Shown here: positions 1-49,990 of the stretch, one piece after another
How positions within the stretch are numbered: position 1 is the stretch's first letter
Layout: each line of letters begins with the position of its first letter
Assembly: GCA_023431185.1 (NCBI GenBank)
Contig: JAEYXS010000065.1
Location: forward strand, 77,386-141,385
DNA length: 64,000 nt
Direction of reading: 5' to 3'
Source: Verrucomicrobiota bacterium
Lineage (GTDB): Bacteria; Verrucomicrobiota; Verrucomicrobiia; Limisphaerales; JAEYXS01
Program-made: the position numbers and the translations under genes
Notes under the pieces: model-generated
What the model was told of the DNA's origin: nothing
The model's input: only the letters and a program-made list of their open reading frames with translations
Databases searched by the model: none

Positions 1-1403
1 TCACGGGCGTGCGACAACGCTGGGATTACTCGGCAGAGGATCCGCATCTGGACATGCGCGGCTTTCGTGTGCTGGAGCTGCGGCAGGATTACGACGAGGC
101 GAACTACACCCGGCAGGATGAGGAACGCGAACTGAGTTTCGAGGAGATCAAGAGTGACCTTGTGTTGCCGAATGGCGCGCGCTTCTACAACGACCACGCG
201 CATCCTGAATACTGCACACCGGAATGCCGCTCCTTTGCTGATATCGTGTTACAAGACCGGGCAGGTGAGCGCATCGTGGAGGCCTGTGCACAAAAGCTTT
301 CTGAGCGGCGTGAGGCAAAGGTGCGGGTGTATAAGAACAATACGGATTTCTGGGGGCATAGTTACGGTTGCCATGAGAATTACCTGCTGCCGCGTTCCTT
401 GGCTTGGGCGACGTTGGCGGAAGGCATGGAGGCGTTTCTCGTCACTCGCCAGATATTTGCCGGTGCGGGGAAGTTCGGCATTGAAGCGGAAGATTCTTTT
501 GAAGGGCCCGGATTTCAGATCGCGCAGCGCAGTGATTTCTTCAGCGAGTTGCAGAGCGTGGACACGATGCAACGGAGGCCTATCATCAATACACGTGATG
601 AACCGCACGCAAATGCACGCTTATATCGCCGTTTCCACGTCATCATCGGTGATGCAAACATGTCGCCCTTTGCCACACGCTTGAAGGTGGGGACAACGGC
701 GTTGGTGTTGGAAGCGCTGGTGCTGGACCCGAAGAAGCGTCATCCCCGGTTGGATGATCCGCTGCTGGCCTTGCCGGTGATCTCGCAGGACTTGAGCTAC
801 AAGTGGGAAGTGAAGTTGCGCGGGAATGAGCCCAGTACGGCTCTGGAAATTCAACGGCATTATCTGGAATGCGTGAAAGCGGTATGCGATCTGAGTTCGC
901 CTGAACGCGTTGAATTGGTAACGGATTGGGAAGCGGCGCTGAACGATCTGGAACAGGATTACCGAAAGTGCCGTGATCGATTGGACTGGGTGGCGAAGCT
1001 GATGCTGGTCCGAGAATTTCAAGCAGCGGAGAATGTGTCTGATGATGATCCGTGGTTGCGGAGCTTGGACTTGGCGTATCACCTGGTGGATGAGGCAGAA
1101 AGCTTGCATGCAGGATTGGAACATGCGGGTGTGATGCGCGGGATGCCGGAGGAGAAGGCGGTGATGGAAGCGGTGAACCTGCCGCCTAAAGACACGCGAG
1201 CATGGATAAGGGGGCGTTGCGTGGCGAAGTTCTCGGAATCCATCATCTCGGCCCAGTGGGATCATGTGACCTTGCAAGGCAGTAAAGGGCGCTTGCGGAT
1301 TTGCCTGCTGGATTTATTCGCGCCGGAGGACATTTTGCGCTATGCTCAATGCATAGAGCGGGCGGTGACGCCTGATGACCTGCAAGCCATTGCGGAAACC
1401 TAG
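1..1403 (+). CDS. dop: Dop-type Pup/UBact deamidase-depupylase, 5' end cut by window edge
   Basis: The frame of ORF 9..1403 stays open to base 1. Pup-ligase/deamidase family motifs are present: HPEYCTPEC, GCHENYL, RRPIINTRDEP, VIIGDANM, KVGTTALVLE. It is paralogous to 3103..4515 but has a longer insert before the PEYCTPEC motif (Dop-loop-like). It lies directly upstream of the Pup-like ORF. Confidence 0.8.
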   Translation, partial: TGVRQRWDYSAEDPHLDMRGFRVLELRQDYDEANYTRQDEERELSFEEIKSDLVLPNGARFYNDHAHPEYCTPECRSFADIVLQDRAGERIVEACAQKLSERREAKVRVYKNNTDFWGHSYGCHENYLLPRSLAWATLAEGMEAFLVTRQIFAGAGKFGIEAEDSFEGPGFQIAQRSDFFSELQSVDTMQRRPIINTRDEPHANARLYRRFHVIIGDANMSPFATRLKVGTTALVLEALVLDPKKRHPRLDDPLLALPVISQDLSYKWEVKLRGNEPSTALEIQRHYLECVKAVCDLSSPERVELVTDWEAALNDLEQDYRKCRDRLDWVAKLMLVREFQAAENVSDDDPWLRSLDLAYHLVDEAESLHAGLEHAGVMRGMPEEKAVMEAVNLPPKDTRAWIRGRCVAKFSESIISAQWDHVTLQGSKGRLRICLLDLFAPEDILRYAQCIERAVTPDDLQAIAET

Positions 1404-1411
1404 CTATCGAT

Positions 1412-1585
1412 ATGCCTGATCAAACCCAGAAACAACGTCCGGCCCCGCCTTCACCCGGCGGTGGTGGTGGCGAGGGACCACGGGAACCCCAGGTGGAGAA
1501 ACCGAACACGGAGGAACTCCTGAAGCGGATGCGCAAGGTCGATCCTGACCAAGCGCGACGCTATCGGCAACGTACCGGCCAATAA
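1412..1585 (+). CDS. UBact/Pup-like prokaryotic ubiquitin-like modifier (57 aa, below ORF-track cutoff)
   Basis: ATG at 1412, TAA at 1583-1585. Translation: MPDQTQKQRPAPPSPGGGGGEGPREPQVEKPNTEELLKRMRKVDPDQARRYRQRTGQ. It occupies the dop-X-prcB slot and has a P/G/Q-rich N-half. The C-terminal RTGQ fits the UBact R-[TS]-G-[EQ] ending. Confidence 0.8.
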   Translation: MPDQTQKQRPAPPSPGGGGGEGPREPQVEKPNTEELLKRMRKVDPDQARRYRQRTGQ

Positions 1586-1589
1586 TAGC

Positions 1590-2363
1590 ATGAACACCGG
1601 GATAGCAGGGGATTTCCTTGGATTGCTCGCGCAGAACAATCTGCGGCCCTTGGCGGCAGAATCTTCCACGCGCGCACCGGAGCAGACGCACGCCACGACG
1701 GTCTTTGCATTCCGCTATCGTGATGGCGTCTTGGTGGCGGGTGACCGGCGGGCGACGGCGGGCAATGTCATCGTGGCGGATGATGTGAACAAGATCATCG
1801 AGATCGACCGCTATTCCTTGCTGGCGATCGCCGGTGTTCCCGCAATGGCGTTCGAGATGGCGCGAGTGATGCAGGTTTCGTTTGCTTACTATCGCCGCAG
1901 CCAGCTTCAGCCCTTGAGCCTCAAGGCCAAAGTGCGGGCCTTGGCGCGATTGCTGCGAGATAACTTGCCGCTGACCTTGCAAGGCGTGGGCGTGGTTGCG
2001 CCGGTCTTTGCGACGGTTGAAGCGCAAGGGGACAAGATGGTGCCGCGCATCTATTTCTACGATCCCTTGGGCGCGCAGTTTGAAGCGGTGGCTTTTGCAG
2101 CATCTGGTTCTGGTTCGGGCACGGTGCGGAGTGTGCTGAGTTATCAGGAAAGGTTTGGTGACGTGAAACCTTCCTCCATGACGCTGAGTCAAGCCATCCG
2201 GTTCGCGCATAATGTGCTAACGGTGGCCTCGGAGTTTGATGCGGCGACGGGTGGTGTGGACCCGCAGCGCACCGTCTGGCCGGTGATCAAGGTGCTGGAT
2301 GCGAATGGAGCGCGGGATGTACAGCCTGCGGAACATGTGGACGCGCGAAAGGAGGAGGTATGA
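1590..2363 (+). CDS. prcB: 20S proteasome beta subunit
   Basis: 257-aa ORF. A propeptide is followed by the ...THA|TTVFAFRYRDGVLVAGDRRATAGN Ntn-hydrolase signature, with the predicted catalytic Thr at residue 36. GSGS motif present. Its stop overlaps the prcA start (ATGA). Confidence 0.9.
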   Translation: MNTGIAGDFLGLLAQNNLRPLAAESSTRAPEQTHATTVFAFRYRDGVLVAGDRRATAGNVIVADDVNKIIEIDRYSLLAIAGVPAMAFEMARVMQVSFAYYRRSQLQPLSLKAKVRALARLLRDNLPLTLQGVGVVAPVFATVEAQGDKMVPRIYFYDPLGAQFEAVAFAASGSGSGTVRSVLSYQERFGDVKPSSMTLSQAIRFAHNVLTVASEFDAATGGVDPQRTVWPVIKVLDANGARDVQPAEHVDARKEEV

Positions 2364-3097
2364 CCGAGGAACCATTTCGCTGGTTGGAGGCGATTGCGAA
2401 TCGCCGGGATTACGTGCAGCAGCAGATCGCGGCAGGTTCACCGGTGTTCGCGGTGAGTCTGGAGTCGGGCATCCTGTTGCTGGGCGTCGGCAGCGGGCAA
2501 TCAAAGGTCTTCGAGATATTTGATCGCCAGGCGATGGCGGCACTCGGGCATCCAGCAGATATTGAACGCGTGCGGCAGATACTCATTGATGCCGCCCATC
2601 TGGAGGCGTTCACGCGCGCGGGTGCGGATGTGAATGTGCGCCGCTTAGTGAGCTTCGGGCTCAGCCCGCAATTGAAGCAGAGCTTCGAGCAGATATTTCA
2701 GGCACCTTTCATGATCAACCTGTTGCTGACGGAAGTGGCCGAGAAGCAAGCTCAAGACGTGCTGGTGCAGGTGCAGTTTGATGGCGGCTTCCAGATCCAG
2801 CATGCGGGCGTGATGGTGGCTTTGCCGAAACCGGAACTGGTGCCAGCCACTGTGGAGTGGTTGCGCAAACACATCGATCCCAAGCTGACACCGGATAAGG
2901 CTACCTTCGTCCTGTTGCAAGCGTGGGATGCTTTGATGCGTAACGAAGCGTTGCCGGAAGCACCGGACTTTTCCGGCGCTTTACCCGCTACCTGCCGTGA
3001 ACGGCTCACCGGCAAAGTTGTGGAAGCGGCGTTGCTGGAGCGGCAGAGCGGCAGCGCGGCGCGGTATGTGCCGTTGATACCTTTTGCGAGCGGCTAA
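2360..3097 (+). CDS. prcA: 20S proteasome alpha subunit
   Basis: 245-aa ORF translationally coupled to prcB. Resembles bacterial PrcA (SKVFEIFDRQAMAALGHPADIERVR region) and has no Thr1 processing motif. Confidence 0.85.
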   Translation: MTEEPFRWLEAIANRRDYVQQQIAAGSPVFAVSLESGILLLGVGSGQSKVFEIFDRQAMAALGHPADIERVRQILIDAAHLEAFTRAGADVNVRRLVSFGLSPQLKQSFEQIFQAPFMINLLLTEVAEKQAQDVLVQVQFDGGFQIQHAGVMVALPKPELVPATVEWLRKHIDPKLTPDKATFVLLQAWDALMRNEALPEAPDFSGALPATCRERLTGKVVEAALLERQSGSAARYVPLIPFASG

Positions 3098-3102
3098 AGT
3101 TT

Positions 3103-4515
3103 ATGAATCGCATCGTCGGCCTGGAGACCGAGTATGGCTGCCTGCTGGATGAAGCGGGCGCGCCAGCGGGATTGATTGGCCGGGTGCGCAACTGGCTCTT
3201 CGAGGGCAACCGTTTCGGCCTGCCGGATCTGCATCAACGCGATTGGGATGAGCCGGCGGGCAATGGCGGGTTTCTCTTCAATGGTGGCCGTGCCTATGTG
3301 GACATGGGGCACTTGGAGTACTGCACCCCCGAGTGTCTGACCGTGCGTGATGTCATCAAATATGATCGCGCAGGTGATGCGATGATCAACCTGGCCTTGC
3401 AGGAGCTGGGTTTCAGTGAGGCGGCCGGGTTTGTGCGGAACAATGTGGACCATTACTCCGGCGCCACCTTCGGCTGCCACGAGAACTATCTGGTCCGGCG
3501 GCATGCACCCCTGACCGAGAAGAACGTCCTGTCGCTGCTGGCATTTCTGACTGTGCGGCTGGTGATGGTGGGCGCGGGCAAGGTCGGTGCTTCGCCCGGA
3601 GTGGAGCAGGGGAATGCGCCGTTCCCCACAGGCAAGGTACCAAAGTTTCAACTCAGCCAGCGCGCGGACTACATCAATAACGATTTGTTCGAGTGGGTGC
3701 AGTTCAACCGAGCCATCATCAATACCCGCGATGAACCACTGGCCGATGGGCGTAAATACCGCCGTTTGCACCTATTGCATGGGGACACCTCTGTGTTGCC
3801 TGCGACCTTGGCGTTGAAGGTAGGCACGACGGCGCTGGTCCTTGATCTTTTGGAAATCGATCATTTGCCGGAGATCGCCTTGGCTGACGCGGTAATGACG
3901 TTTCATCTGCTTTCTCACGACGTTGAGGGACCTTGGCTGGTACAGTTGGCGGATGGGCGGCAGATGGATGCGCTGGAGTTGCTGGATGTTTTCCGCCGCA
4001 AGGCGCAGAGCGAGTTCGGCGGTCGTGATGAGGAGACAGATGGGGTTTTGAAGCTCTGGCAAGGGACCATTGAGCGCCTGTGCAAAAAAAGAGAAGAGTT
4101 GGTGGGCGTGGTGGATTGGGTGACGAAGCGCTGGCTGTTCGAGCAGTTCATGGCAGAGCAGAAACTGGATTGGGATGATCCGTGGCTGAAGTCCTTAGAC
4201 CTTGAGTTTCACCATGTTTCACCGGGCCGCAGCCTGGCTTTGCCTTTGGACAAGACGGAGGCCGGCTGGTCACCTGCTGCCGAAGAAGTGATCGAGGCCA
4301 TGCAAACTGCACCAGACAATACCCGGGCAGGATTGCGGTCCCGGCTGATGCGGGAGCTAAGTCAAAGGAACTTGCGCTACTATGTTGATTGGGAGGTGCT
4401 GGATGCGGCGGGAGCGAAGACTTTGGAGCTTTCGAGTCCATTTGAGGTGAATTCCGAGGCTTCAGCGTTGTGGCTGAAATCGTTGGAAGAGCCGGGGGAC
4501 GCCTTTTCGCCTTAG
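3103..4515 (+). CDS. pafA: PafA-type Pup/UBact-protein ligase
   Basis: 470 aa. N-terminal MNRIVGLETEYG, then HLEYCTPEC, GCHENYL, NRAIINTRDEP, HLLHGDTS. It lacks the extra insert seen in the upstream paralog. Starts 5 nt after prcA. Confidence 0.85.
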   Translation: MNRIVGLETEYGCLLDEAGAPAGLIGRVRNWLFEGNRFGLPDLHQRDWDEPAGNGGFLFNGGRAYVDMGHLEYCTPECLTVRDVIKYDRAGDAMINLALQELGFSEAAGFVRNNVDHYSGATFGCHENYLVRRHAPLTEKNVLSLLAFLTVRLVMVGAGKVGASPGVEQGNAPFPTGKVPKFQLSQRADYINNDLFEWVQFNRAIINTRDEPLADGRKYRRLHLLHGDTSVLPATLALKVGTTALVLDLLEIDHLPEIALADAVMTFHLLSHDVEGPWLVQLADGRQMDALELLDVFRRKAQSEFGGRDEETDGVLKLWQGTIERLCKKREELVGVVDWVTKRWLFEQFMAEQKLDWDDPWLKSLDLEFHHVSPGRSLALPLDKTEAGWSPAAEEVIEAMQTAPDNTRAGLRSRLMRELSQRNLRYYVDWEVLDAAGAKTLELSSPFEVNSEASALWLKSLEEPGDAFSP

Positions 4516-4707
4516 CGGGCTTGGTTCCGGGCGGGCAGACAAGAAAGCCAAAAGATTTGGTTATTTGGCCGGAGATGGTTGACCAAGGCAATTTTTCCCA
4601 AGTAATCCTGCTGCAATTTACTTGCCGCTTTGTGCGTGGGTTCCCTAATCTGCGCGGAAATGGGTTGGGAGTGGATAGCCACTGCAGCCCTATTACTGTC
4701 AGTCAGC

Positions 4708-4784
4708 GCGCGAGTAGCTCAACTGGATAGAGTGACGGTCTCCGAAGCCGTAGGTTGTGGGTTCAAATCCCGCCTCGCGCACCA
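4708..4784 (+). tRNA. tRNA-Arg (anticodon CCG)
   Basis: Manual cloverleaf fold. Acceptor GCGCGAG/CTCGCGC, D-arm GCTC..GAGT, anticodon stem ACGGT/GCCGT with loop CT-CCG-AA, T-arm GTGGG-TTCAAAT-CCCGC, discriminator A and an encoded CCA. Confidence 0.9.
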
Positions 4785-7270: not shown

Positions 7271-8974
7271 ATGCGTTTCTGTGTGCCATATCTGTGCCTG
7301 AGTGTAGCCGTCAGCCTGCTGCTGACGGGTTGTCAGACCCCTGCTGACAAGGGCACGGCTGCCAAATCCAAACAAGAGAAGGAAGACAAACCGCCCATTC
7401 CGGCGGAGCAGTGGACTTTTGCCTTCTCCAAGGAAGATGAGTTGAGGATCGAGGCCTTTGCGCGGTTTGCCGCCGGGGTGAGCAATGAGCTGCAGGAAAA
7501 GGGGCCCGAAGCCATGGAAGAGTTCTTCCGTGCGGCCTTGGCGGATTCCACGAATGAGAAGCTGGTGCTGGATGTGGCCCGACGGCTGGTCCAAGGGAGG
7601 CAGTTGGAGAAGGCGGCCATCTTGCTGGGAAAATCGGGCGAGAACCCGGACGCTTCGGCAAGTCTCCTGACTTTGCTGGGGCTGGTTTATGCCGATCAGG
7701 ACCGGGTGGAGGAGGCGATAGCGGTGCAGCGTCGGGCGATCAAGAAGGCACCCAAGTCAATGGCGCCTTATCGAGGTCTGGTGCAACTCTACCTCAAGAA
7801 GGACAACGGACCGGCGGCGTTGCTGGTGCTGGGCGAGGCGGCCCGGATGGAAGGTGTCAGTCCCGAGTTCCAGATGGATCTGGCCGAGCTGTATGGCTAT
7901 TACCTGCGTCTGAAGCCGGATCAGTCCGAATTAGTCAAGCCGGGCATGAAGGCGGCGCTGGACAAGGTGATGGAGACGAAACCGGAGAAACCGGAGATGT
8001 TGGTAAAACTGGCGGAGGGGTATCAGTTCATCAAAGATCTGCCCAGCGCTACCCATGTGTATCTGGAGTTGCTGAAACGCTTTCCCGATGCGCCGGGAGT
8101 GCGGGAGCGGCTGACCAATCTGTTCTTGCAGGGCGGGGAGAAGGGGAAGGCGGTGGAGCTTTTGCAAGCATTGATCCGTGAGAATCCCACGCGACATCCG
8201 GAGGCCTATTTCATTTTGGCAAACCTGTTGCGTGAGGAAAAGAAATATGCCGAGGCGGCGGAGCAGTTGGAGCGCATGTTGATCGTGAAGGATGACGTGG
8301 AGCCAGTCTATTATGAACTGGCGGAGGCCCATAACCTGAACGAGAAGCCGGAGCAGGCACTGAGTGTGCTGGACAAGGCCAAGGGGAAGTTCGGTGACAG
8401 TTTCGTGAACCGGTTCTACCGGGCAATCACCTATAACCGGCTGAAGAAGTATGACAAGGCGGTGGCGGAGCTTACGGCGGCGGAGGTCATGGCCCGGGCG
8501 ACCGCGCCGGAGAGATTGACGCCCCAGTTCTATTTCCAGATGGGCGCGGCGTATGAGCGGAACAAAGACTATGCCGAGGCGGCCAAGTATTTCGAGAAGT
8601 GCCTGGAGATGGAGCCGGACTTCGCAGAGGCACTGAATTATCTCGGCTACATGTGGGCGGAGCGCGGGGAGAATCTGGAGCGCGCGAAGATCCTGATCGA
8701 GAAGGCGGTGAAGCAGGAACCGGAAAACGCGGCCTTCCTGGACAGCATGGCGTGGGTGCTCTTCAAGCTGAACCAGCCCAAGCCTGCGCTGGACTGGATG
8801 CTCAAGGCGATGAAGCATGTGGAGGAGGAGGACGCGACGCTCTACGATCATCTCGGCGATATCTATGCATCGTTGAAGGATTATCTCAAGGCGCGCGAGG
8901 CATGGGAGAAATCACTCAAGATCGAGGTGAGCGAAGAGGTGAAGAAGAAGCTGGAGTCGGCACCAAAGGAATGA
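7271..8974 (+). CDS. TPR-repeat lipoprotein
   Basis: 567 aa. Signal peptide with lipobox LLLTGC. Repeated 34-aa TPR-like helical units along the whole protein (e.g. AEAAKYFEKCLEMEPDFAEALNYLGY). Confidence 0.75.
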   Translation: MRFCVPYLCLSVAVSLLLTGCQTPADKGTAAKSKQEKEDKPPIPAEQWTFAFSKEDELRIEAFARFAAGVSNELQEKGPEAMEEFFRAALADSTNEKLVLDVARRLVQGRQLEKAAILLGKSGENPDASASLLTLLGLVYADQDRVEEAIAVQRRAIKKAPKSMAPYRGLVQLYLKKDNGPAALLVLGEAARMEGVSPEFQMDLAELYGYYLRLKPDQSELVKPGMKAALDKVMETKPEKPEMLVKLAEGYQFIKDLPSATHVYLELLKRFPDAPGVRERLTNLFLQGGEKGKAVELLQALIRENPTRHPEAYFILANLLREEKKYAEAAEQLERMLIVKDDVEPVYYELAEAHNLNEKPEQALSVLDKAKGKFGDSFVNRFYRAITYNRLKKYDKAVAELTAAEVMARATAPERLTPQFYFQMGAAYERNKDYAEAAKYFEKCLEMEPDFAEALNYLGYMWAERGENLERAKILIEKAVKQEPENAAFLDSMAWVLFKLNQPKPALDWMLKAMKHVEEEDATLYDHLGDIYASLKDYLKAREAWEKSLKIEVSEEVKKKLESAPKE

Positions 8975-11141: not shown

Positions 11142-13088
11142 ATGTTATTGCGCCAGGTCGCCACTGATTATTCGAAGCACCCATTGCTGCCGGGGGCGGT
11201 GTTGGTCTGCATTTCGGGTGACGGTCAGACACGGCGCTTGAGCCAGTTCACGGCGGATGACCTGGCGGATTACAACAAGTTGACGGTCAAGGAGATCGTC
11301 GCGCACTTGCGCCAGTCCGGAGTGCTGGGGGAAGAGCAGGGGAATGACCTGCTCCAGCTCGATGCGGATTATCGTCAGTGGCACAAGTATGTGCAGGAGC
11401 ATATACCGGAGGTCTGCCGCATCACGGAGTGTCATCAGGAATCGGTGTTGCGGCTGCAACGGGCCCTGTTCAGTGCCAAGCTGCTCGCGGAGTTCTTGGA
11501 AATCCTGACCCCGCCGCAAGTCTCCTTTGAGAAAACATCGCAAGGGACGACTGATCTGCTGGCGAGCCTGAATGAATCCTTTCGCAAGATCGTGGGCGGT
11601 ATCTGGTCGGTGATGGTGGCGGAGGATGACCGTTCGCTGGTGGCGGATGCTTCGGCGCAGTTTTGGGTGGCATGCCTTTATAGCAACGGCCCGCAGAAGA
11701 TGGCCGGTGGTTTCATCGGACTTTTCCAACGGCATAATCGGGAAAGATTCGAAGCGTTGACGGGCCGCATCAATGGTACGGGACCGTTGCGGGTGAAGGA
11801 TGAGGTGTCGGACTTCATGCACCAGACGGCGGAGCGATTGCAGCATTTGCGTGAAGCAGTCAAAGAGACGGTGAAGGCCGGGCTGGATCAACCATTCCGC
11901 GAGATCGCGCGGGTCATCACCAAGCTCGAACTGCCGCCGTTGGTCATCTTGTTCTACGATTCGCTGCTGCGTGAGGTATGTGATGCATTGGCGGGCATTG
12001 ATGGCGATTTTTCGGCGAAGGAGAACCGTTTCGTGCAATACCTGCTGGAGCAGACTTCGGCCATTTGCCACGAAGTGCAACGTCAGGCGGCGGAATCGGC
12101 ACAGGTGGTGGGGCATGACCGGCTGGATGAGATTCTCAAGGAGTTGGATGACTTGGTGGGGCTGGACGTGGTGAAGCAAAAGGTGCGGGAGGTGGCGAAC
12201 TTCGCGCGGCTCCAACAGATGCGCATCGGGCAGGGGATGCCCGCCATCCCGGCCACGTATCACACCGTCTATACCGGCAATCCGGGCACGGGCAAGACCA
12301 CGATGGCACGATTGATGGGCCGCATTTTCCGAGTGCTGGGCGTCTTGAAGAAAAGGCATGTGGTGGAGTGCGATCGCGCAGCGCTGGTGGCAGAGTATGT
12401 GGGGCAGACGGCGCCGCGCACGAATGCCGTGGTGGATTCCGCACTGGATGGCATCCTGTTCATCGATGAGGCGTATACGCTGGCGAAGGAGGGCGAGGAT
12501 TTCGGGCGCGAAGCCATCGATACGCTACTGAAGCGCATGGAGGATAATCGGGACCGGCTCATTGTGATCGTGGCGGGCTATCCGGAAAACATGCGGACGT
12601 TCATTGATTCCAATCCGGGCCTGAGTTCCCGTTTCACCCGCTACATCGAGTTCCCCGATTACACGGTGCCGGAGCTGTGCCGCATCTTCGCCAGTATCTG
12701 TCGCAAGAATGCGCTGCACCTCACGCCGGGCTTGCGGGAGAAGCTGGTGCATCATTTCACCTATCTGCGTGAGCGGGCGGATGAGCAATTCGGCAATGCA
12801 CGGCTGGTGCGAAATTGTTTCGAGGCGGCGATCAATGCCCAGGCGATGCGCCTGGCAGCGAGCGGTGATTTCAGTCCATCGGCTCTGAGTAATCTGTCGG
12901 AAGAAGACCTGAGTTCACCCGCGCAGGAACAGTTGCAGGCGTATCGGGCGGCGGGGAAGTATTACGAGGTGAAGTGTCCGAGTTGTGGCACGGTGTATAC
13001 GTGGTCGCCGGATCTGAAACTGAAGGAGGGCGTCTGCACGAATTGTGGGAAGCAGTACAGTTGTGAGTTTGGCGAGATAGTTAAGTAG
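11142..13088 (+). CDS. AAA+ ATPase of the CbxX/SpoVK type with a ~340-aa uncharacterised N-domain and a C-terminal zinc ribbon
   Basis: 648 aa. Walker A GNPGTGKTT, Walker B ILFIDEAY, RLIVIVAGY and SRF sensor region. C-terminal CPSCG...CTNCG pair. Confidence 0.8.
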   Translation: MLLRQVATDYSKHPLLPGAVLVCISGDGQTRRLSQFTADDLADYNKLTVKEIVAHLRQSGVLGEEQGNDLLQLDADYRQWHKYVQEHIPEVCRITECHQESVLRLQRALFSAKLLAEFLEILTPPQVSFEKTSQGTTDLLASLNESFRKIVGGIWSVMVAEDDRSLVADASAQFWVACLYSNGPQKMAGGFIGLFQRHNRERFEALTGRINGTGPLRVKDEVSDFMHQTAERLQHLREAVKETVKAGLDQPFREIARVITKLELPPLVILFYDSLLREVCDALAGIDGDFSAKENRFVQYLLEQTSAICHEVQRQAAESAQVVGHDRLDEILKELDDLVGLDVVKQKVREVANFARLQQMRIGQGMPAIPATYHTVYTGNPGTGKTTMARLMGRIFRVLGVLKKRHVVECDRAALVAEYVGQTAPRTNAVVDSALDGILFIDEAYTLAKEGEDFGREAIDTLLKRMEDNRDRLIVIVAGYPENMRTFIDSNPGLSSRFTRYIEFPDYTVPELCRIFASICRKNALHLTPGLREKLVHHFTYLRERADEQFGNARLVRNCFEAAINAQAMRLAASGDFSPSALSNLSEEDLSSPAQEQLQAYRAAGKYYEVKCPSCGTVYTWSPDLKLKEGVCTNCGKQYSCEFGEIVK

Positions 13089-19619: not shown

Positions 19620-22600
19620 ATGCACACGATGGGAAAAGGAATGACCGCGATCTGGGCTGCTTTTATCAGCCTGTGCGTGGGCTCTTGGGCGGTGCTGGGG
19701 GCAAGCCCGGCGGGGAAGGTGGACTTTGCGAAAGATGTCTTACCCATCTTGTCGGACAAGTGTTTCCATTGCCACGGGCCGGATGATGAGGGGCGAAAGG
19801 CGAAGCTGCGGTTGGATACGGAGGAGGGGGCATTTCGCGTCAACAAGGGCGTGGCGAACATCGTGAAGGGCAAGCCGGAGCAGAGCGAGATGATCGTGCG
19901 CATCCTGAGCAAGGATGAGGATGACGTGATGCCGCCGCCGTCGTCCCATCGCACACTGACGGAGGAGCAGAAGCAGACCTTGAAGCGGTGGGTGGAGCAG
20001 GGCGCGCCGTGGGGCAAGCATTGGGCCTACACGGAAATCGCGAAGGTCACGCCGCCCAAGGTGAAGAACACGCGGGCGGTGAAGAACCCGATTGACCAGT
20101 TCATCCTGGCGCGGCTAGAGCAGGAAAAGCTGAAGCCCTCGGGGGAGGCGACGAAGGAGCAATTACTGCGGCGGGTGACATTTGACCTGACGGGGTTGCC
20201 GCCGACGTTGGCGGAGATGGATGCGTTCCTGGCGGATAAATCGCCAAAGGCATACGAAAAGGTGATCGACCGCTTGCTGCAATCACCCGCATACGGCGAG
20301 CAGATGGCGCGGGAGTGGCTGGACCTGGCGCGGTATGCGGACACGTTCGGCTATCAGGCGGACGTGGACATGAACATGTATCCGTGGCGCGACTGGGTGA
20401 TCAAGGCGTTCAACGAGAATCTGCCCTACGACAAGTTCGTCACGTGGCAACTCGCGGGGGATCTGCTGCCGAAGCCGACGCGGGACCAGTATCTGGCCAC
20501 GGCGTTCAATCGTCTGCACCGCCAGACGAATGAGGGCGGAAGCATCGATGAGGAATTCCGCGTGGAATATGTGTCGGATCGCGTGCACACGATGGGCACG
20601 GCGTTCCTGAGCCTGACGCTGGAGTGTGCCCGGTGCCACGATCACAAATATGATCCGATCAGCCAGAAGGATTATTATTCGCTCAGCGCGTTCTTCGATA
20701 ATATCGATGAATCGGGGCTGTATTCGCATTTCACGAAGGCGACACCGACACCGGCATTGAGCCTGTATAAGGATGATCAGGAATCGAAGCACTTGTTGCT
20801 CAAGACGCAGATCGCTGAGGCGGGGGCGAAATTGAAGCGGGTGGAAAAAGAGGCGCAGGGACGGTTTCAGCAATGGAAGAATCCGGGTGCGGCGATGCCG
20901 GAGGTGAAGCCCGTGGCACGGTTCTCTCTGGATGAAGTGAAGGATAACAAGACGCCGAATGCGTTGGGAACGAATGTGGCGGTGCTGATGGATGCACCGA
21001 AAGTGGTGGCGGGCAAGGCGGGGCAGGCGTTGCAGTTCAGCGGGGACAATGAGCTGGAATGCAAGGGCGTGGGCGAATTCAAGCGCACGGATGCGTTCTC
21101 CTTCGCGCTTTGGGTGAAGCCGACGGAGAAGTTGCCGCGGGCGGTGGTGTTCCATCGTTCCCGGGCGTGGAGCGATTCGGGAAGTCGTGGATATGAGCTG
21201 GTGCTGGAGGATGGCAAGCCGTTCTTCGGACTGATCCATTTCTGGCCGGGCAATGCGATCGGCGTGCGGGCAAAGGAAGCGTTGCCGTTGAATGAGTGGT
21301 CCCATATCACGGTGACATATGATGGATCCAGCAAGGCGGCTGGCGTGGCGCTGTATGTTAATGGCAAGAGACAGGCGATGGATACTGTGCGGGATGGTTT
21401 GACGCGAGATATCATCCACCGTGCTGAGTGGGGTGATGCGGAAGCCGGAAACATCCCGCTGACTTTGGCGGGGCGGTTCCGTGACAATGGGTTCAAGAAC
21501 GGAATGATCGACGAGTTCACGGTGTATGACGTCGCACTGACGGGGTTGGAGGTGGAGAATCTGGTGGCGGTGGCTGGCCAAGCCAAAGTGGAATCGGATG
21601 AGCGATTGTTCGTATACTATCTGAACCGTCACGATGAGTTGTATAGGAAAGCGCAAGAGGAGCTGAAACAGTTGCGTGTGGCGGAAAACACGCTGGTTTA
21701 TGGCGTGCAAGAGATCATGGTGATGAAGGAACTGCCGAAGCAGCGCCCGACGTATCTGCTGAAACGCGGCGCGTATGATGCGCCAGCAGATGAAGTGTTT
21801 CCCGGGACGCCAGAGCGCATTTTTGCGATGCCGAAAGAGTATCCGAAGAATCGTTTGGGTTTGGCGCAGTGGATGACTGATGCGCGGAATCCGCTCACGG
21901 CGCGCGTGGCGGTGAACCGCATCTGGAAACTACACTTTGGACGCGGTCTGGTATCTACGGTGGAGGACTTCGGCGCGCAGAGCCAACGGCCGACACATCC
22001 AGAGTTATTGGATTGGCTGGCACGGCATTACATGGAGTCGGGTTGGAATCGGAAGGCGTTGCACAAGCTCATCCTCATGTCGGCGACTTATCGACAATCC
22101 TCGGTGCCGACGAAGGAGCAGATGGCGAAAGACCCGGAGAATCTGTTACTGGCACGCGGTGCGCGGCATCGCCTGGCAGCGGAGCAGATAAGGGATGCGG
22201 CACTGGCGGTGAGTGGGTTGTTGAATCCAACCATCGGCGGGCAAAGCGTGAAGCCGTATCAACCGGCGGGGCTGTGGGAAGAAGCGGGCACGGGCAAGAC
22301 GTATGTGCAGGACAAAGGCGAGAAGCTGTATCGGCGCAGCCTCTACACGTTCTGGCGTCGCACCTCGCCGCCACCATCCATGGTAAGCTTTGATGCGACC
22401 TCGCGCGAGATCTGCACAGCGAAGCGGGAGACGACCTCGACGCCGTTGCAGGCGTTGGTGCTGCTGAACGATCCGCAGTTTGTAGAGGCGTCACGGGTGC
22501 TGGCGGAGAAATTGGTGAAGGCGGAGCCGCAAGCGGTGGATAAACGAGTGGTCAACAGCTTCCGTTTGTTGGCGGGACGTGTGCCGGACAAGGAAGAGGT

Positions 22601-22787
22601 GAAGATTCTTGAGGGATTGTTCACGGAGCAGAAAGAGCGTTTTGCGAAAAATAAAGAAGCGGCGCAGAAGCTCTTGAAGACAGGCGAAGCGAAGGCAGGC
22701 ACGACGTTGGATGCTGCCGATGTGGCGGCGACGACGATGCTGGTGAGCACGTTGATGAACTTTGACGAATTTGTGATGAAGCGATGA
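19620..22787 (+). CDS. PSCyt1 + DUF1549 (PSCyt2) + LamG-like + DUF1553 (PSD1) multidomain secreted protein
   Basis: 1055 aa. N-terminal CFHCHGPD heme-c-like motif, DUF1549-type [14 protein letters not shown] and [18 protein letters not shown], a central concanavalin/LamG-like segment, and a C-terminal DUF1553-like region. Start could be one of three early Met codons. Confidence 0.8.
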
Positions 22788-24259
22788 ATACGAACCATCA
22801 ACCACTTTGCACGGGATCGTTGGATGCGCTGGGCTTGAGCCGGCGCCAGTTCTTGAACCGTTTCGGTCTTGGGCTGGGCGGAATCGCGCTCGCGAACTTG
22901 GTCAATCCGGTGAGTTCATTTGGTGCGGCGACACAAGCGGCGGACAAGGGCATCTTGAACGGGCAGACGCATTTTCCGGCGAAGGCGAAGCGGGTGATCT
23001 ACCTCTTCATGAGCGGCGGTCCGTCGCAGTTGGAAACGTTCGATTACAAGCCGTTGCTCAATGAAAGGAATGGCGAGCAGTTGCCGGACTCGGTGCGCAA
23101 GGGGCAACGGCTGACAGGCATGTCGGGTAATCAGGCGTCGCTGCCGCTGGCAGGGTCCATCTACAAGTTCGGTCAGCATGGAAAGAACGGTGCGTGGGTG
23201 AGTGAGTTGCTGCCGCATACGGCGAAGGTGGTGGATGACATTTGCATCGTGCGCTCGATGTTCACGGAGGCGATCAATCACGATCCAGCGATCACGTTTT
23301 TGCAGACGGGTTCGCAGCTTTCCGGCAGGCCGAGCATCGGCGCGTGGCTGCATTATGGCTTGGGCAGTGATAATGAGAATTTGCCGTCGTTCGTGGTGCT
23401 GATCACGAAGGGCAAAACGGATCAGCCACTTTACTCGCGCTTGTGGGGCAGCGGGTTTCTGCCGTCGCGGCATCAAGGCGTGCAGTTCCGCTCGGGCAAA
23501 GATCCGGTGCTATATCTGAACAACCCGGAAGGCATCGATGGCGAGGGGCGTCGCATGATGCTGGATCGCTTGCGTGAACTGCACGAGCACAGTGCGGCGA
23601 AGGTGCAAGATGCGGAGATCGATACACGTATCGCGCAGTACGAGATGGCGTATCGTATGCAGACGAGCGTGCCGGATGTGATGGATCTCTCGAAGGAGTC
23701 GCAAGCAACACTGGATATGTATGGGCCGGATGCGAAGAAGCCCGGAACCTTTGCGGCGAATTGCCTGCAGGCGCGGCGTTTGGCCGAGCGCGGGGTGAAG
23801 TTCATCCAACTCTATCACCAAGGTTGGGATCAGCACGGCGGTTTGCCGGGTGGCATCAAACGGCAATGCCAGGAGACGGATCAACCGGCGGCAGCGTTGC
23901 TCCAGGATTTGAAGCAGCGCGGGATGCTCGATGATACGCTGGTGGTGTGGGGTGGTGAGTTCGGGCGCACGAATTATTCGCAGGGCAAGTTGACGCCGAC
24001 GAATTACGGGCGTGATCATCATCCGCGCTGTTTCAGCATCTGGATGGCGGGCGGCGGTATTAAGCCGGGTGTGGTGTATGGCGAGACGGACGAATTTGGC
24101 TACAATGTGACGAGCAAGGGCGTGCACGTGCATGATTTCCACGCGACGATGCTGCATCTACTGGGCATCGATCACGAGCGGTTGACGTTCAAGTATCAAG
24201 GGCGTTACTTCCGGCTCACGGATGTGCACGGGCATGTGGTGAAGGATATTTTGATGTGA
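22784..24259 (+). CDS. DUF1501 (sulfatase-fold) protein with TAT-like leader
   Basis: 491 aa. [16 protein letters not shown] leader, then [24 protein letters not shown] and FRLTDVHG motifs typical of DUF1501. ATGA overlap with the upstream gene. Confidence 0.85.
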
Positions 24260-42343: not shown

Positions 42344-43140
42344 CTGGAGAACTGAAAGGCGGTTAGGAGTTGAAAATAGAACCGTCTAAGCATGAAAGGA
42401 AACAGCACTGATATAATTGCCTCACACTGGAAGTGAAAATATTTTCGGGTGCAAGTTTTTGAGAGGGAGGGGATTAGGGATTTTGGTTTTTTGGATGTGG
42501 AAAATTTATTGTGGTGACGGGTTTTTGTGATAGTATTTAGGGGCTGGCAGCTCGCTGCTGGTAAAGGACGGGGTAAAGCCCAGTTTCAGGTTTCTGGTCT
42601 CAAGTTTCAGGTCAGGAACACGAAGAAGAGGGCGGTAATCCCAGGTCACTAAGCATGATGATGCATGGCATTGTTGTGTCCTGCGTTGGCGGGGAGGTGA
42701 CGAGTCCTTATGGGGCCATCATCAGGGATGTGCGAGGTGAGAGGGGCGAAGTGCGACTCTCGCTTCGGAGTCTCTGTTGAAGTTCGGTAGGGCAGTTGCG
42801 GAAAGAGTTTGGGCGGCGGAGCACCTCCGCCCTACCGGACTAGAATAGGATCTGTGGGTGTGTCGGGTGTTTGGGTCGGGGCTCGTAAGCTGGAGGGGGA
42901 ACGGGACGTCGGGCGGCGTAGGATGTTATGACCGACCGGGAAATCTCTAGGTCGAAGTTCGACTGCCGTACCCACTGCGGAACCAGCCGGGCTTTGGACA
43001 AATGCGAGGTGTGAAGTTCGAGGTGCGAAGTATGCACTGCGAGGTTCGGCGTCGAATTGACTTCTTGAATGAGGAGGGTTGGACGGGATGCACGCACAGG
43101 GGTCGGGTGGTTTCATTGCTCTTTGAAATAAGTTCTCTGT

Positions 43141-43175
43141 TTAACCGCAGATGGACGCAGATAAACGCAGATGAG
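43141..43175 (+). repeat. second clear copy of the TTAACC + 3x10-bp element
   Basis: TTAACC then CGCAGATGGA / CGCAGATAAA / CGCAGATGAG, starting at 43146, 43156 and 43166. Confidence 0.75.
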
Positions 43176-43209
43176 GGAGAGGGGGTGTTAAAGCTCCTCC
43201 TCTCCCTGG

Positions 43210-43241
43210 CCCTCTCCTCCATTTATCAATGGAGGAGAGGG
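43210..43241. repeat. perfect 13-bp-stem hairpin
   Basis: CCCTCTCCTCCAT-TTATCA-ATGGAGGAGAGGG, inside the ORF-free region. Confidence 0.6.
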
Positions 43242-43576
43242 GAATGGAACTGTGCGTATGTGAGTCTTAGGTGGTTAATGGAGTGGCTGGCGAGGGTTTG
43301 GTTTCGGGAGGTGTGGACTAGTGGCTAGAGTGCCGCAGGACAGGATGCTATCGCGGAGTGTCACATCAAACAAACTGGATGGTAGGCTGCTTCGAGGGAA
43401 CGTGAAATTGGAGAATGGGATTGGGAGCTTGGTTCTGGGGAGTTCGAAGGTGAAGTTGCTGGTTGGCCGGGGTCACTCCGTGCGTTACAAGCGCGGAGTG
43501 ATACCGGCAGGCCGGGGGAATTGAGTGATGTTGATTGTGCCTTGCACTTTGACTGGTCGCATTTACCTTTGGCGTC

Positions 43577-43849
43577 ATGGCGAATGCGCCCAAGAAAAAA
43601 AGCAAAGCCAAAGCCATGATGCTTGGCGTGGGTCTGGATACGGATGGTCACAAGCGGGTGACCAAAGGGGATAACTTTACCCTCGTGGGCGGCAGCAAGG
43701 ATACCCACGAGGAGATGACCGAGAAGGCCATCAAGATCAATGAGAAGCTCAAAGCCCGTGGCAAGACGTTGGAATCCGTGAGCCATGAGGAGTTTGATGA
43801 CATCGCGCACGCGGTCGGGTTAAGGCGGAACAACAATCAGGCGAACTGA
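43577..43849 (+). CDS. hypothetical small protein (90 aa, Lys-rich N-terminus)
   Basis: ATG start and a clean ORF with coding-like composition (MANAPKKKSKAKAMMLGVGLDTDGHKRVTKGDNFTLVGGSKDTHEEMTEKA...). No family recognised by eye. Confidence 0.5.
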   Translation: MANAPKKKSKAKAMMLGVGLDTDGHKRVTKGDNFTLVGGSKDTHEEMTEKAIKINEKLKARGKTLESVSHEEFDDIAHAVGLRRNNNQAN

Positions 43850-43877: not shown

Positions 43878-43906
43878 TTGACGTGTGGCCGGTGCATGGT
43901 TAGTTT
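43878..43906 (+). promoter_or_regulatory. candidate sigma70-type promoter of the nuo operon
   Basis: TTGACG (43878-43883), a 17-nt spacer, then TAGTTT (43901-43906), about 30 nt upstream of the nuoA ATG. Confidence 0.35.
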
Positions 43907-44321: not shown

Positions 44322-44936
44322 ATGGATGAAGGGCTGCGTAACGAGTTGAGCAAACAGGGCGTGTTCACCACGACCTTGAGCGATATCTATAACTGGGGTC
44401 GTCGCAGTTCGGTGTGGCCGCTCCAGTTCGGGCTCGCGTGTTGCGCCATCGAGATGATCGCGGCGTCCATGGCGCGATATGACCTGGCGCGTTTCGGTGC
44501 GGAAGTGTTCCGGCCCTCACCACGGCAGGCGGATCTCATGATCGTGGCCGGCACGGTGACCAAGAAGATGGCACCGCAAGTGGTGCGGCTCTACAATCAG
44601 ATGCCGGAGCCGAAGTATGTCATCGCGATGGGTGCGTGTGCGATCTCTGGCGGACCGTTCAAGCAAGGTTACAATGTGCTCAAGGGCATTGACCGTTATA
44701 TCCCGGTGGATGTGCACATCCCAGGCTGTCCACCGCGACCAGAAGCGCTCTTGCATGCGTTCATGACCTTGCAACGCAAGATCGATGAGCAGGCGATGAG
44801 CGGTAAGGCGCGGCCCCGTCATCTCGATCCGGATGCACCCAGTGAATTTCCCGTCCCACAATTCGGTGAGCATGACTTGGTGCCGCCGAAGAATGAGAAG
44901 GTGTGGGAACCGGCAACGGTGATTCGGAATGGCTGA
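44322..44936 (+). CDS. nuoB: complex I subunit B (N2 cluster subunit)
   Basis: [16 protein letters not shown] and GCPPRPEAL cysteine motifs. Confidence 0.92.
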
Positions 44937-49688: not shown

Positions 49689-49990
49689 TCCCGCTGCATT
49701 ACTACCTCATCGTGGCCGCGATGCTCTTTTGCATAGGGCTTGCAGGCGCGTTGATCCGACGCAATGCCATCATGGTGCTGGTGGGCATCGAGTTGATGTT
49801 GAACGCAGCGAATCTGAACTTCATCGCGTTCTGGCGTTACTCGCCGAATCCGGATGGTAATCAGGGTGTGATGTTCGCGATCTTCTCCATCGCCATCGCG
49901 GCAGCGGAGGCGGCGGTGGGGTTGGCACTGATCATCGCGCTTTATCGGCACTATCGCAGCACGGATGTGGCGAAGGAGGATAAGAAGTGA
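49685..49990 (+). CDS. nuoK: complex I subunit K
   Basis: 101 aa, 3 TM helices, GIELMLNAANLNF motif. 4-nt overlaps with both neighbouring genes. Confidence 0.9.
   Translation: MIPLHYYLIVAAMLFCIGLAGALIRRNAIMVLVGIELMLNAANLNFIAFWRYSPNPDGNQGVMFAIFSIAIAAAEAAVGLALIIALYRHYRSTDVAKEDKK

Follow-up and report, generated by a model that had tools for sequence, protein, structure and literature searches.

In actinobacteria, the genes of the Pup-proteasome system stand in a rigidly conserved order, arc/mpa-dop-pup-prcB-prcA-pafA, with pafA downstream of prcBA and unrelated open reading frames (ORFs) between them only sometimes (Barandun et al. 2012; PMC3511204). Pup-like genes with two flanking PafA paralogues were also described in Verrucomicrobia and Nitrospirae by Iyer, Burroughs and Aravind (2008; PMC2588565); they are linked there to all three proteasomal genes, including that of the ATPase, and Methylacidiphilum and Nitrospirae are listed. 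Here, we report on a locus of this kind at the beginning of a 64,000-nucleotide (nt) stretch of DNA from a Verrucomicrobiota bacterium (contig JAEYXS010000065.1, positions 77,386 to 141,385); the whole stretch that was analysed is called the window below. We conclude, with a probability of about 0.88, that window positions 1-4515 belong to a canonical UBact-proteasome locus with the order mpa-dop-UBact-prcB-prcA-pafA, of which they form the 3' five-sixths, in an uncultured member of Limisphaerales (Verrucomicrobiota). The name UBact was reportedly introduced in 2017 by Lehmann, Udasin, Livneh and Ciechanover (BBRC 483:946), and the same six-gene order is said to have been given by them. The 2017 UBact paper of Lehmann et al. 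is cited, under its title, in PMC12751074.

Gene order and components of the locus

The original prediction, made from the letters of the window, described a unit of five genes, dop, UBact, prcB, prcA and pafA, with no Mpa/ARC unfoldase to feed the proteasome core. The ORF list and profile searches agree that the five genes lie where they had been placed, with family assignments that are statistically secure. To this unit a sixth gene must be added, since mpa directly precedes dop. An exact-protein look-up of PrcB led to scaffold_21 of ENA ERZ28594742 (L001 below), a 358-kb metagenome scaffold that has 0 mismatches to the window across the shared 12,363 nt and in which window base 1 is position 8412. 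The window edge cuts the dop gene, whose start codon lies 114 nt upstream of window base 1, and the gene before dop, on the same strand, is mpa. The features are as follows (aa, amino acids).

mpa: L001 6486-8207, + strand; 573 aa; the gene ends 204 nt upstream of base 1 of the window, and 89 nt separate it from the start codon of dop
dop-like gene: window 1-1403 (the 3' 466 codons), the full 505 codons being L001 8297-9814, + strand; matches Pup_ligase, TIGR03688 and the solved structure 4b0r
UBact: window 1412-1585, L001 9823-9996, + strand; 57 aa; matches PF20513 and NF033388
prcB: window 1590-2363, L001 10001-10774, + strand; 257 aa; matches PF00227 and TIGR03690
prcA: window 2360-3097, L001 10771-11508, + strand; 245 aa; matches TIGR03691 and solved alpha subunits, with an AlphaFold2 model
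pafA-like gene: window 3103-4515, L001 11514-12926, + strand; matches Pup_ligase; putative UBact ligase
tRNA-Arg(CCG): window 4708-4784, + strand; found by ARAGORN and by Rfam RF00005 (67.5 bits); a neighbour outside the system

The presence, order and junctions of the genes can be read directly from the DNA. All reading frames of the cluster are intact, and the junctions are tight or overlapping: 8 nt between dop and UBact, 4 nt between UBact and prcB, a 4-nt ATGA overlap of prcB and prcA, and 5 nt between prcA and pafA, the last two being as predicted when read from the ORF list. The tRNA-Arg gene follows pafA at a distance of 192 nt. In L001, the order mpa-dop-UBact-prcB-prcA-pafA on one strand is the conserved order of UBact/Pup-proteasome loci, and the six genes are probably co-transcribed. 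The remark in the original prediction that actinobacterial pafA usually forms a locus of its own was overstated, because a conserved order that includes pafA, 3' of prcBA, has been described (PMC3511204). Antisense and alternate-frame ORFs in window 1-4600 gave zero family matches and were therefore treated as shadows; the only RNA gene found by Rfam was the tRNA.

The gene adjoining dop upstream encodes a protein with matches to the Pfam families Prot_ATP_ID_OB_N (82 bits), Prot_ATP_ID_OB_C (43 bits) and AAA (104 bits). Among solved structures, Mpa of M. tuberculosis is nearest to it (5kwa, 7px9; 321 bits). The alignment with 7px9 places residues 72-554 of the query on residues 68-581 of the chain, from the coiled-coil region through the beta-grasp region, and from it an N-terminal coiled coil is predicted. 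Walker A (GPPGCGKT) and Walker B (FMDEAE) motifs and an aromatic-hydrophobic-Gly pore loop (WVG) are present in the translation. Judged by its domains, the two OB domains and the AAA module, the 573-aa protein is an ATPase of Mpa/ARC type. Homologues of this protein are numerous (more than 7,900 at an expectation value, E, of 1e-30 or less).

The statement that Mpa/ARC is missing thus holds inside the window, where tblastn with the L001 Mpa revealed no relative (best E 0.12), and fails as a headline, mpa lying just outside the edge. The original prediction had left two places for the unfoldase, upstream of base 1 or replaced by something else; extension of the scaffold bore out the former and not the latter. 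Since mpa lies immediately before base 1, it is the position of the window edge that makes the unfoldase seem absent. A replacement unfoldase within the window was considered and rejected: the tblastn search was negative, and the sole AAA protein lies 6.6 kb downstream, behind unrelated genes. This ATPase (window 11142-13088), predicted to be of CbxX/SpoVK type, was indeed typed as SpoVK/CbbX/EccA. It has 648 aa, with the AAA module at about residues 326-592, and its N-terminal 325 or so residues have no family match.

The modifier gene was assigned by two profiles, PF20513 (E 4.9e-23, 81.1 bits versus a cut-off of 27.8) and the NCBI model NF033388 (82.1 bits versus 35, covering profile positions 2-54 of 54). 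Its product ends in ...DPDQARRYRQRTGQ, read as RYRQRTGQ, which fits the family ending R-x-x-R-T/S-G-[E/Q], and the tail DPDQA[KR]RYRQRTG[QE] is near-invariant across 46 related loci. Given the C-terminal Gln, a deamidase would be needed before ligation. No clean pattern was observed in the related loci between a Gln or Glu ending and the presence of an adjacent dop gene: loci without dop have mostly Gln, and some loci with Glu retain dop.

Two proteins of the Pup_ligase family flank the modifier and the core subunits. The upstream one (E 1.6e-141), taken at full length, obtains 446 bits with the Dop model TIGR03688 versus 337 bits with the PafA model TIGR03686, and 330 bits against solved Acidothermus Dop (4b0r) versus 215 bits against Corynebacterium PafA (4b0t). 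Its residues RQRWDYSAEDPHLDMRGF align with the Dop-loop of Acidothermus Dop, a position at which it is about 34 residues longer than its downstream paralogue, and its YNDHAHPEY aligns with YVDHAHPEY, the catalytic aspartate being kept. The upstream paralogue is clearly Dop-like in sequence. The downstream paralogue (E 7.8e-110) has no Dop-loop. Its catalytic Asp67 and the motifs GLETEYG, GCHENYL, INTRDEP and YRRLH are invariant among its relatives, of which databases hold more than 6,300 at E of 1e-20 or less; those that carry a name are annotated as "proteasome accessory factor PafA2 family protein" and come from Verrucomicrobiota or Pedosphaera. Because of its position in the conserved order, the missing Dop-loop and the need of the system for a ligase, the downstream paralogue is the probable UBact ligase.

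PrcB matches PF00227 with E 9e-26 (91 bits versus 22.4). Its Thr36 aligns with the first residue of the mature beta chains of Rhodococcus and M. tuberculosis (1q5q_H, 2fhg_H, 6ocw_H), in agreement with the processing site that had been proposed. The predicted cleavage is at ...THA/TTVFAF (the slash marks the cut), so that the propeptide would be codons 1-35; the Thr1 codon is at window 1695-1697, and codons 33-37, which encode THA/TT, are at 1686-1700. The original prediction had raised the loss of the catalytic triad as a sign of decay. Thr1, Asp17 and Lys33 are all present in PrcB, and Asp17 and Lys33 were found in 47/47 sequences from this locus and its relatives.

PrcA is harder to recognise. 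It matches TIGR03691 with E 3.5e-14 (52.8 bits), falls short of the PF00227 gathering score (20.8 versus 22.4 bits), and aligns with solved 1q5q_A and M. tuberculosis PrcA with E 7e-5 to 6e-4. A precomputed Pfam domain was found in none of the 120 PrcA homologues listed, out of 1,716 homologues at E of 1e-5 or less. An AlphaFold2 model of moderate confidence (predicted local distance difference test 67.4, predicted template-modelling score 0.69) shows a helix near the N-terminus, at residues 4-24. The modelled structure suggests an alpha-type N-terminal nucleophile fold in which an H0 helix stands at the N-terminus and Thr1 is lacking. When the model was compared with PDB structures by Foldseek, the top 50 matches were all 20S alpha subunits (E about 1e-5, template-modelling scores 0.4-0.56), including those of T. 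acidophilum, M. tuberculosis, Rhodococcus and A. fulgidus. As only 20S alpha subunits appear among these 50 matches, the identity of PrcA is secure. Thus, on sequence and modelled fold, PrcA is a very divergent 20S alpha subunit.

Homology of the components to those of the actinobacterial Pup-proteasome system suggests a mechanism. The Dop homologue would deamidate UBact at its C-terminal Gln, which would become Glu. The PafA-like enzyme, driven by ATP, would then activate the gamma-carboxylate of this Glu and join it to substrate lysines. A hexamer of Mpa, with its coiled-coil, double-OB and AAA regions, would bind the tag through the coiled coils, and its W-V-G pore loops would unfold the substrate and thread it into a PrcA7-PrcB7-PrcB7-PrcA7 core. 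The beta subunits would activate themselves by cleaving off the 35-residue propeptide, which would expose Thr1 (Thr36), and removal of the tag would later also fall to the Dop homologue.

Conservation of the locus in Limisphaerales

To see how widely the locus is shared, species were scanned with one genome per species. A relative of the pafA-like gene is encoded by 422 genomes, and synteny was mapped by tblastn of all components onto the best 80 of these. The 80 genomes are mostly metagenome-assembled genomes (MAGs) of Verrucomicrobiota/Limisphaerales, and the nearest PafA-like protein is 95% identical to the one studied here. Among loci with enough sequence, UBact, prcB and prcA were found upstream of pafA in 39/55, dop upstream of UBact in 33/39, and mpa upstream of dop in 26/32.

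The predicted host, a member of the Planctomycetes-Verrucomicrobia-Chlamydiae (PVC) group, was borne out by the genomes of the relatives, which place it in Verrucomicrobiota, order Limisphaerales. G+C content is uniform over the cluster and its flanks. The flanks are common to close relatives, with rho upstream and genes for a response regulator, purN and hisG downstream. Uniform G+C and shared flanks indicate a resident system rather than a recent import, and a recent horizontal island is, given the same two observations, unsupported. We therefore conclude that the UBact-proteasome cluster is a widespread resident system of Limisphaerales and is not decaying.

Several variants of the arrangement were observed among the related loci. 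In six of them (L059, L010, L062, L063, L078 and L080), dop-UBact-prcBA-pafA occurs with unrelated metabolic genes in the place of mpa. Another six (L072, L053, L055, L061, L070 and L081) have UBact-prcBA-pafA with no dop or mpa within about 8 kb, and their UBact mostly ends in Gln. A third arrangement, seen in L042 (8781-11419) and alike in L047, L050, L040 and L077, consists of genes for a PrcA-like protein, a 4Fe-4S ferredoxin and a PafA-like protein, with prcB and UBact not nearby; the PafA-like protein of the L042 arrangement has about 63% identity to that of the locus described here. In addition to a complete cluster (L016), the MAG Baikal-deep-G225 contains a solitary PafA-like gene (L035), so some genomes carry a second PafA-like locus. 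Seven loci (L003, L019, L036, L042, L045, L050 and L058) come from entries titled Chitinophaga pinensis, Akkermansia muciniphila, Klebsiella sp. or Klebsiella pneumoniae. As these loci are more than 60% identical to Limisphaerales proteins, the entries are probably mislabelled submissions.

Departures from the actinobacterial pattern and alternative readings

A number of observations weigh against the identification of the locus as a canonical UBact-proteasome system. The literature searched contained no experimental study of any UBact system. A scan for consensus promoters and terminators gave 4 promoter-like and 10 terminator-like sites versus 4.1 and 8.5 expected, which is chance level; such scans neither back nor contradict co-transcription of the cluster or the predicted end of the unit at the tRNA. 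All five enzymes score below the NCBI equivalog cut-offs: Dop has 446.2 bits versus 492.3 for TIGR03688, Mpa 428.1 versus 504.75 for TIGR03689 (pup_AAA), PrcB 169 versus 192 for TIGR03690, PrcA 52.8 versus 139 for TIGR03691, and the pafA-like protein 263.8 versus 551.3 for TIGR03686, the Dop model giving it 270.5. These scores fit the generic names given to the enzymes by the sources. Together with the PrcA score under the Pfam gathering threshold, they are also what speaks for a cluster that is decaying, or that was recently transferred and is a functionless remnant. We consider such a remnant scarcely conceivable. Frames are intact, junctions tight or overlapping, and homologues number in the thousands, with a relative in 422 species genomes, uniform G+C and flanks conserved in relatives. 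The residues checked, namely Thr1, Asp17 and Lys33 of PrcB, the aspartates of Dop and PafA, and the Walker motifs and pore loop of Mpa, are all intact, which argues that the system is not decayed; decay was rejected on the intact frames, the catalytic residues and the broad conservation. The roles of the two Pup_ligase-family paralogues are a separate matter. The downstream one obtains 264 bits with the PafA model and 270 with the Dop model, and is marginally nearer to solved PafA (219 bits) than to solved Dop (206 bits). The segment around its catalytic Asp reads VDMGHLEYCTPEC, in place of LDVGSHPEYATAEC with the LVGS / A-T-A signature of PafA, and its alpha-loop is DYINNDLFEWVQFNRA versus DHVWEGVSSATTRSRP in Corynebacterium PafA, with residues that match neither PafA nor Dop. 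The PafA-specific residues by which Hecht et al. turned Dop into a ligase (PMC7947786) are not present in it. The paralogues could thus divide their roles differently, for example as a heterodimeric ligase, which Iyer et al. proposed where two paralogues exist (PMC2588565), or with a downstream paralogue that is not a ligase. This appears improbable to us, since the upstream paralogue combines a well-aligned Dop-loop and the DHAHPEY motif with a clear preference for Dop models, the downstream one has no Dop-loop and holds the pafA position in the conserved order, and the Gln ending of UBact requires a deamidase. Actinobacterial Dop and PafA, moreover, are monomeric. Their roles are separate (PMC7947786).

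Further departures were found in Mpa and in the core subunits. Mpa ends in ...GYAGQIV (L001 8151-8207; window about -260 to -204). An ending of the form [VIM][VI] occurs in 120/120 nearest Mpa clusters listed and in all full-length Mpa tails of the related loci, and a penultimate Tyr in 0/120 of these clusters; among Mpa representatives at 50% identity, GQYL is confined to a more distant, actinobacterial-like branch. The penultimate Tyr of the GQYL/HbYX docking motif has been called the main 20S-binding determinant (PMC8755798, PMC8142254) and is treated as key in PMC6466877 too, and Cpa, which is without it, has no demonstrated degradation activity (PMC8755798, PMC6466877). The alpha subunit expected to form the docking pockets is, in addition, very divergent. 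Tagging and unfolding may therefore work while Mpa docks non-canonically, either through another interface or not at all, as a stand-alone unfoldase, with the core fed by another activator. We regard this as unlikely: mpa is tightly and repeatedly linked to dop-UBact-prcBA (26/32 loci), its tail keeps two conserved hydrophobic residues behind a flexible linker, as expected for a docking peptide, and the locus showed no other activator. In HslU, docking likewise relies on a hydrophobic C-terminus that has no Tyr at the penultimate position. We infer that Mpa of the UBact locus docks onto the 20S core. The departures extend to PrcB, in which the residue before Thr1 is Ala in 46/47 sequences and Gly in 1; proteasome autolysis has been described at a Gly(-1)-Thr1 bond, the positioning of which has been called "decisive" (PMC4792962). 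The Mpa tail, Ala(-1), the alpha divergence, the scores below the equivalog cut-offs and the missing PafA signature are clade-wide and go beyond the single locus. It is possible, if doubtful, that with its Tyr-less Mpa tail, divergent alpha subunit and Ala(-1), the verrucomicrobial UBact-proteasome has an activator-core interface and a maturation chemistry unlike those of the actinobacterial paradigm. Were the three differences coupled, nature would have provided in this clade an experiment on how a 20S proteasome can be docked onto, and its gate opened, without the Tyr.

Surroundings of the locus and comparison with known systems

Upstream of mpa, L001 contains rho, a Peptidase_M90 (MtfA-like) gene and a gene for a 338-aa protein with WYL and WCX domains, the last two spanning L001 4341-6150. 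A WYL homologue was found upstream of mpa in 13/23 related loci with room for it. The spacers between the WYL gene and mpa (L001 6151-6485, 335 nt) and between mpa and dop (8208-8296) are dense in short perfect palindromes, with 7-9-nt arms and 1-4-nt loops. The former also contains a long hairpin (L001 6267-6329) with 22-nt arms and a T-run after the 3' arm. In the closest relatives, the spacer between WYL gene and mpa is about 65-175 nt by tblastn coordinates. No second copy of the hairpin-containing spacer and no notable direct-repeat families were found in the window.

Farther into the window lie the genes that had pointed to a PVC host. The PSCyt/DUF1553/DUF1501 content noted in the original prediction was recovered as a PSCyt1/PSCyt2/PSD1(DUF1553) gene at 19620-22787 and a DUF1501 gene at 22784-24259. 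A region of about 1.2 kb without a convincing ORF (42390-43570) lies 5' of a 90-aa ORF (43577-43849). On the 3' side of this ORF, the translations suggest the start of an NADH-dehydrogenase operon, with a nuoA-like gene at 43878, an ORF at 44322 and a Proton_antipo protein at 49987. Rfam revealed no credible match in 42390-43570, the sole one having E 0.093 and a score far under the gathering score. At low threshold, matches in the leader of mpa and in the region 42.3-43.6 kb were hairpins on miRNA models, far below gathering scores.

The WYL gene, for a putative HTH-WYL-WCX regulator, invites comparison with PafBC, regulators of this type whose genes accompany pafA in mycobacteria. The 338-aa protein (L001 5134-6150) resembles PafBC in having WYL and WCX domains and in its linkage to a proteasome locus; among solved proteins it is closest to Arthrobacter PafBC (6sj9, E 3e-11), followed by PafB/PafC of M. 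smegmatis (7p5x, E 4e-8 and 9e-7). In contrast to the pafB-pafC pair downstream of pafA, there is here one gene, upstream of mpa. The arrangement echoes the linkage of pafABC in mycobacteria (PMC6466877), with the WYL gene at the opposite end of the locus.

Compared with the actinobacterial Pup-proteasome system, as in M. tuberculosis, the locus has the same gene order and the same domain architecture of every component. It shares the Dop-loop, the Thr1/Asp17/Lys33 beta site and a small modifier ending in G-[QE], and the best PDB relatives of each component are proteins of M. tuberculosis, Rhodococcus, Acidothermus and Corynebacterium. The differences are these: the modifier is of the UBact family with an RTGQ end, not of the Pup family with GGQ; the enzymes fall short of the NCBI equivalog cut-offs; Mpa ends in GQIV instead of GQYL; the residue at -1 of PrcB is Ala in place of Gly; PafA is without the signature residues of actinobacterial PafA; the genes are tightly packed, with gaps of 4-89 nt or an overlap and no unrelated ORFs before pafA; and a single gene for a putative WYL regulator stands upstream of mpa in place of the pafB-pafC pair downstream of pafA. 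In the literature searched, we found no discussion of the WYL and M90 genes upstream of mpa, of the Tyr-less Mpa tail or of PrcB Ala(-1). The Tyr-less tail, Ala(-1), the divergent alpha subunit and the signature-less PafA-like protein are cheap leads for choosing a Gram-negative UBact system to reconstitute. As the absence of the unfoldase was a window-edge effect, there is no replacement unfoldase to seek.

The closest known counterparts of the locus are the UBact clusters of Gram-negative phyla, among which Verrucomicrobiota have been reported. They share with it the modifier family and the pair of Pup-ligase paralogues on either side of the modifier and prcBA, and the proteasomal ATPase is likewise nearby. 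An NCBI curated model covers the modifier, and public metagenomes hold thousands of homologues. Nothing essential differs in the locus described here, which comes from a Limisphaerales MAG. We therefore conclude that it is a further instance of a known system, described in Verrucomicrobia since 2008.

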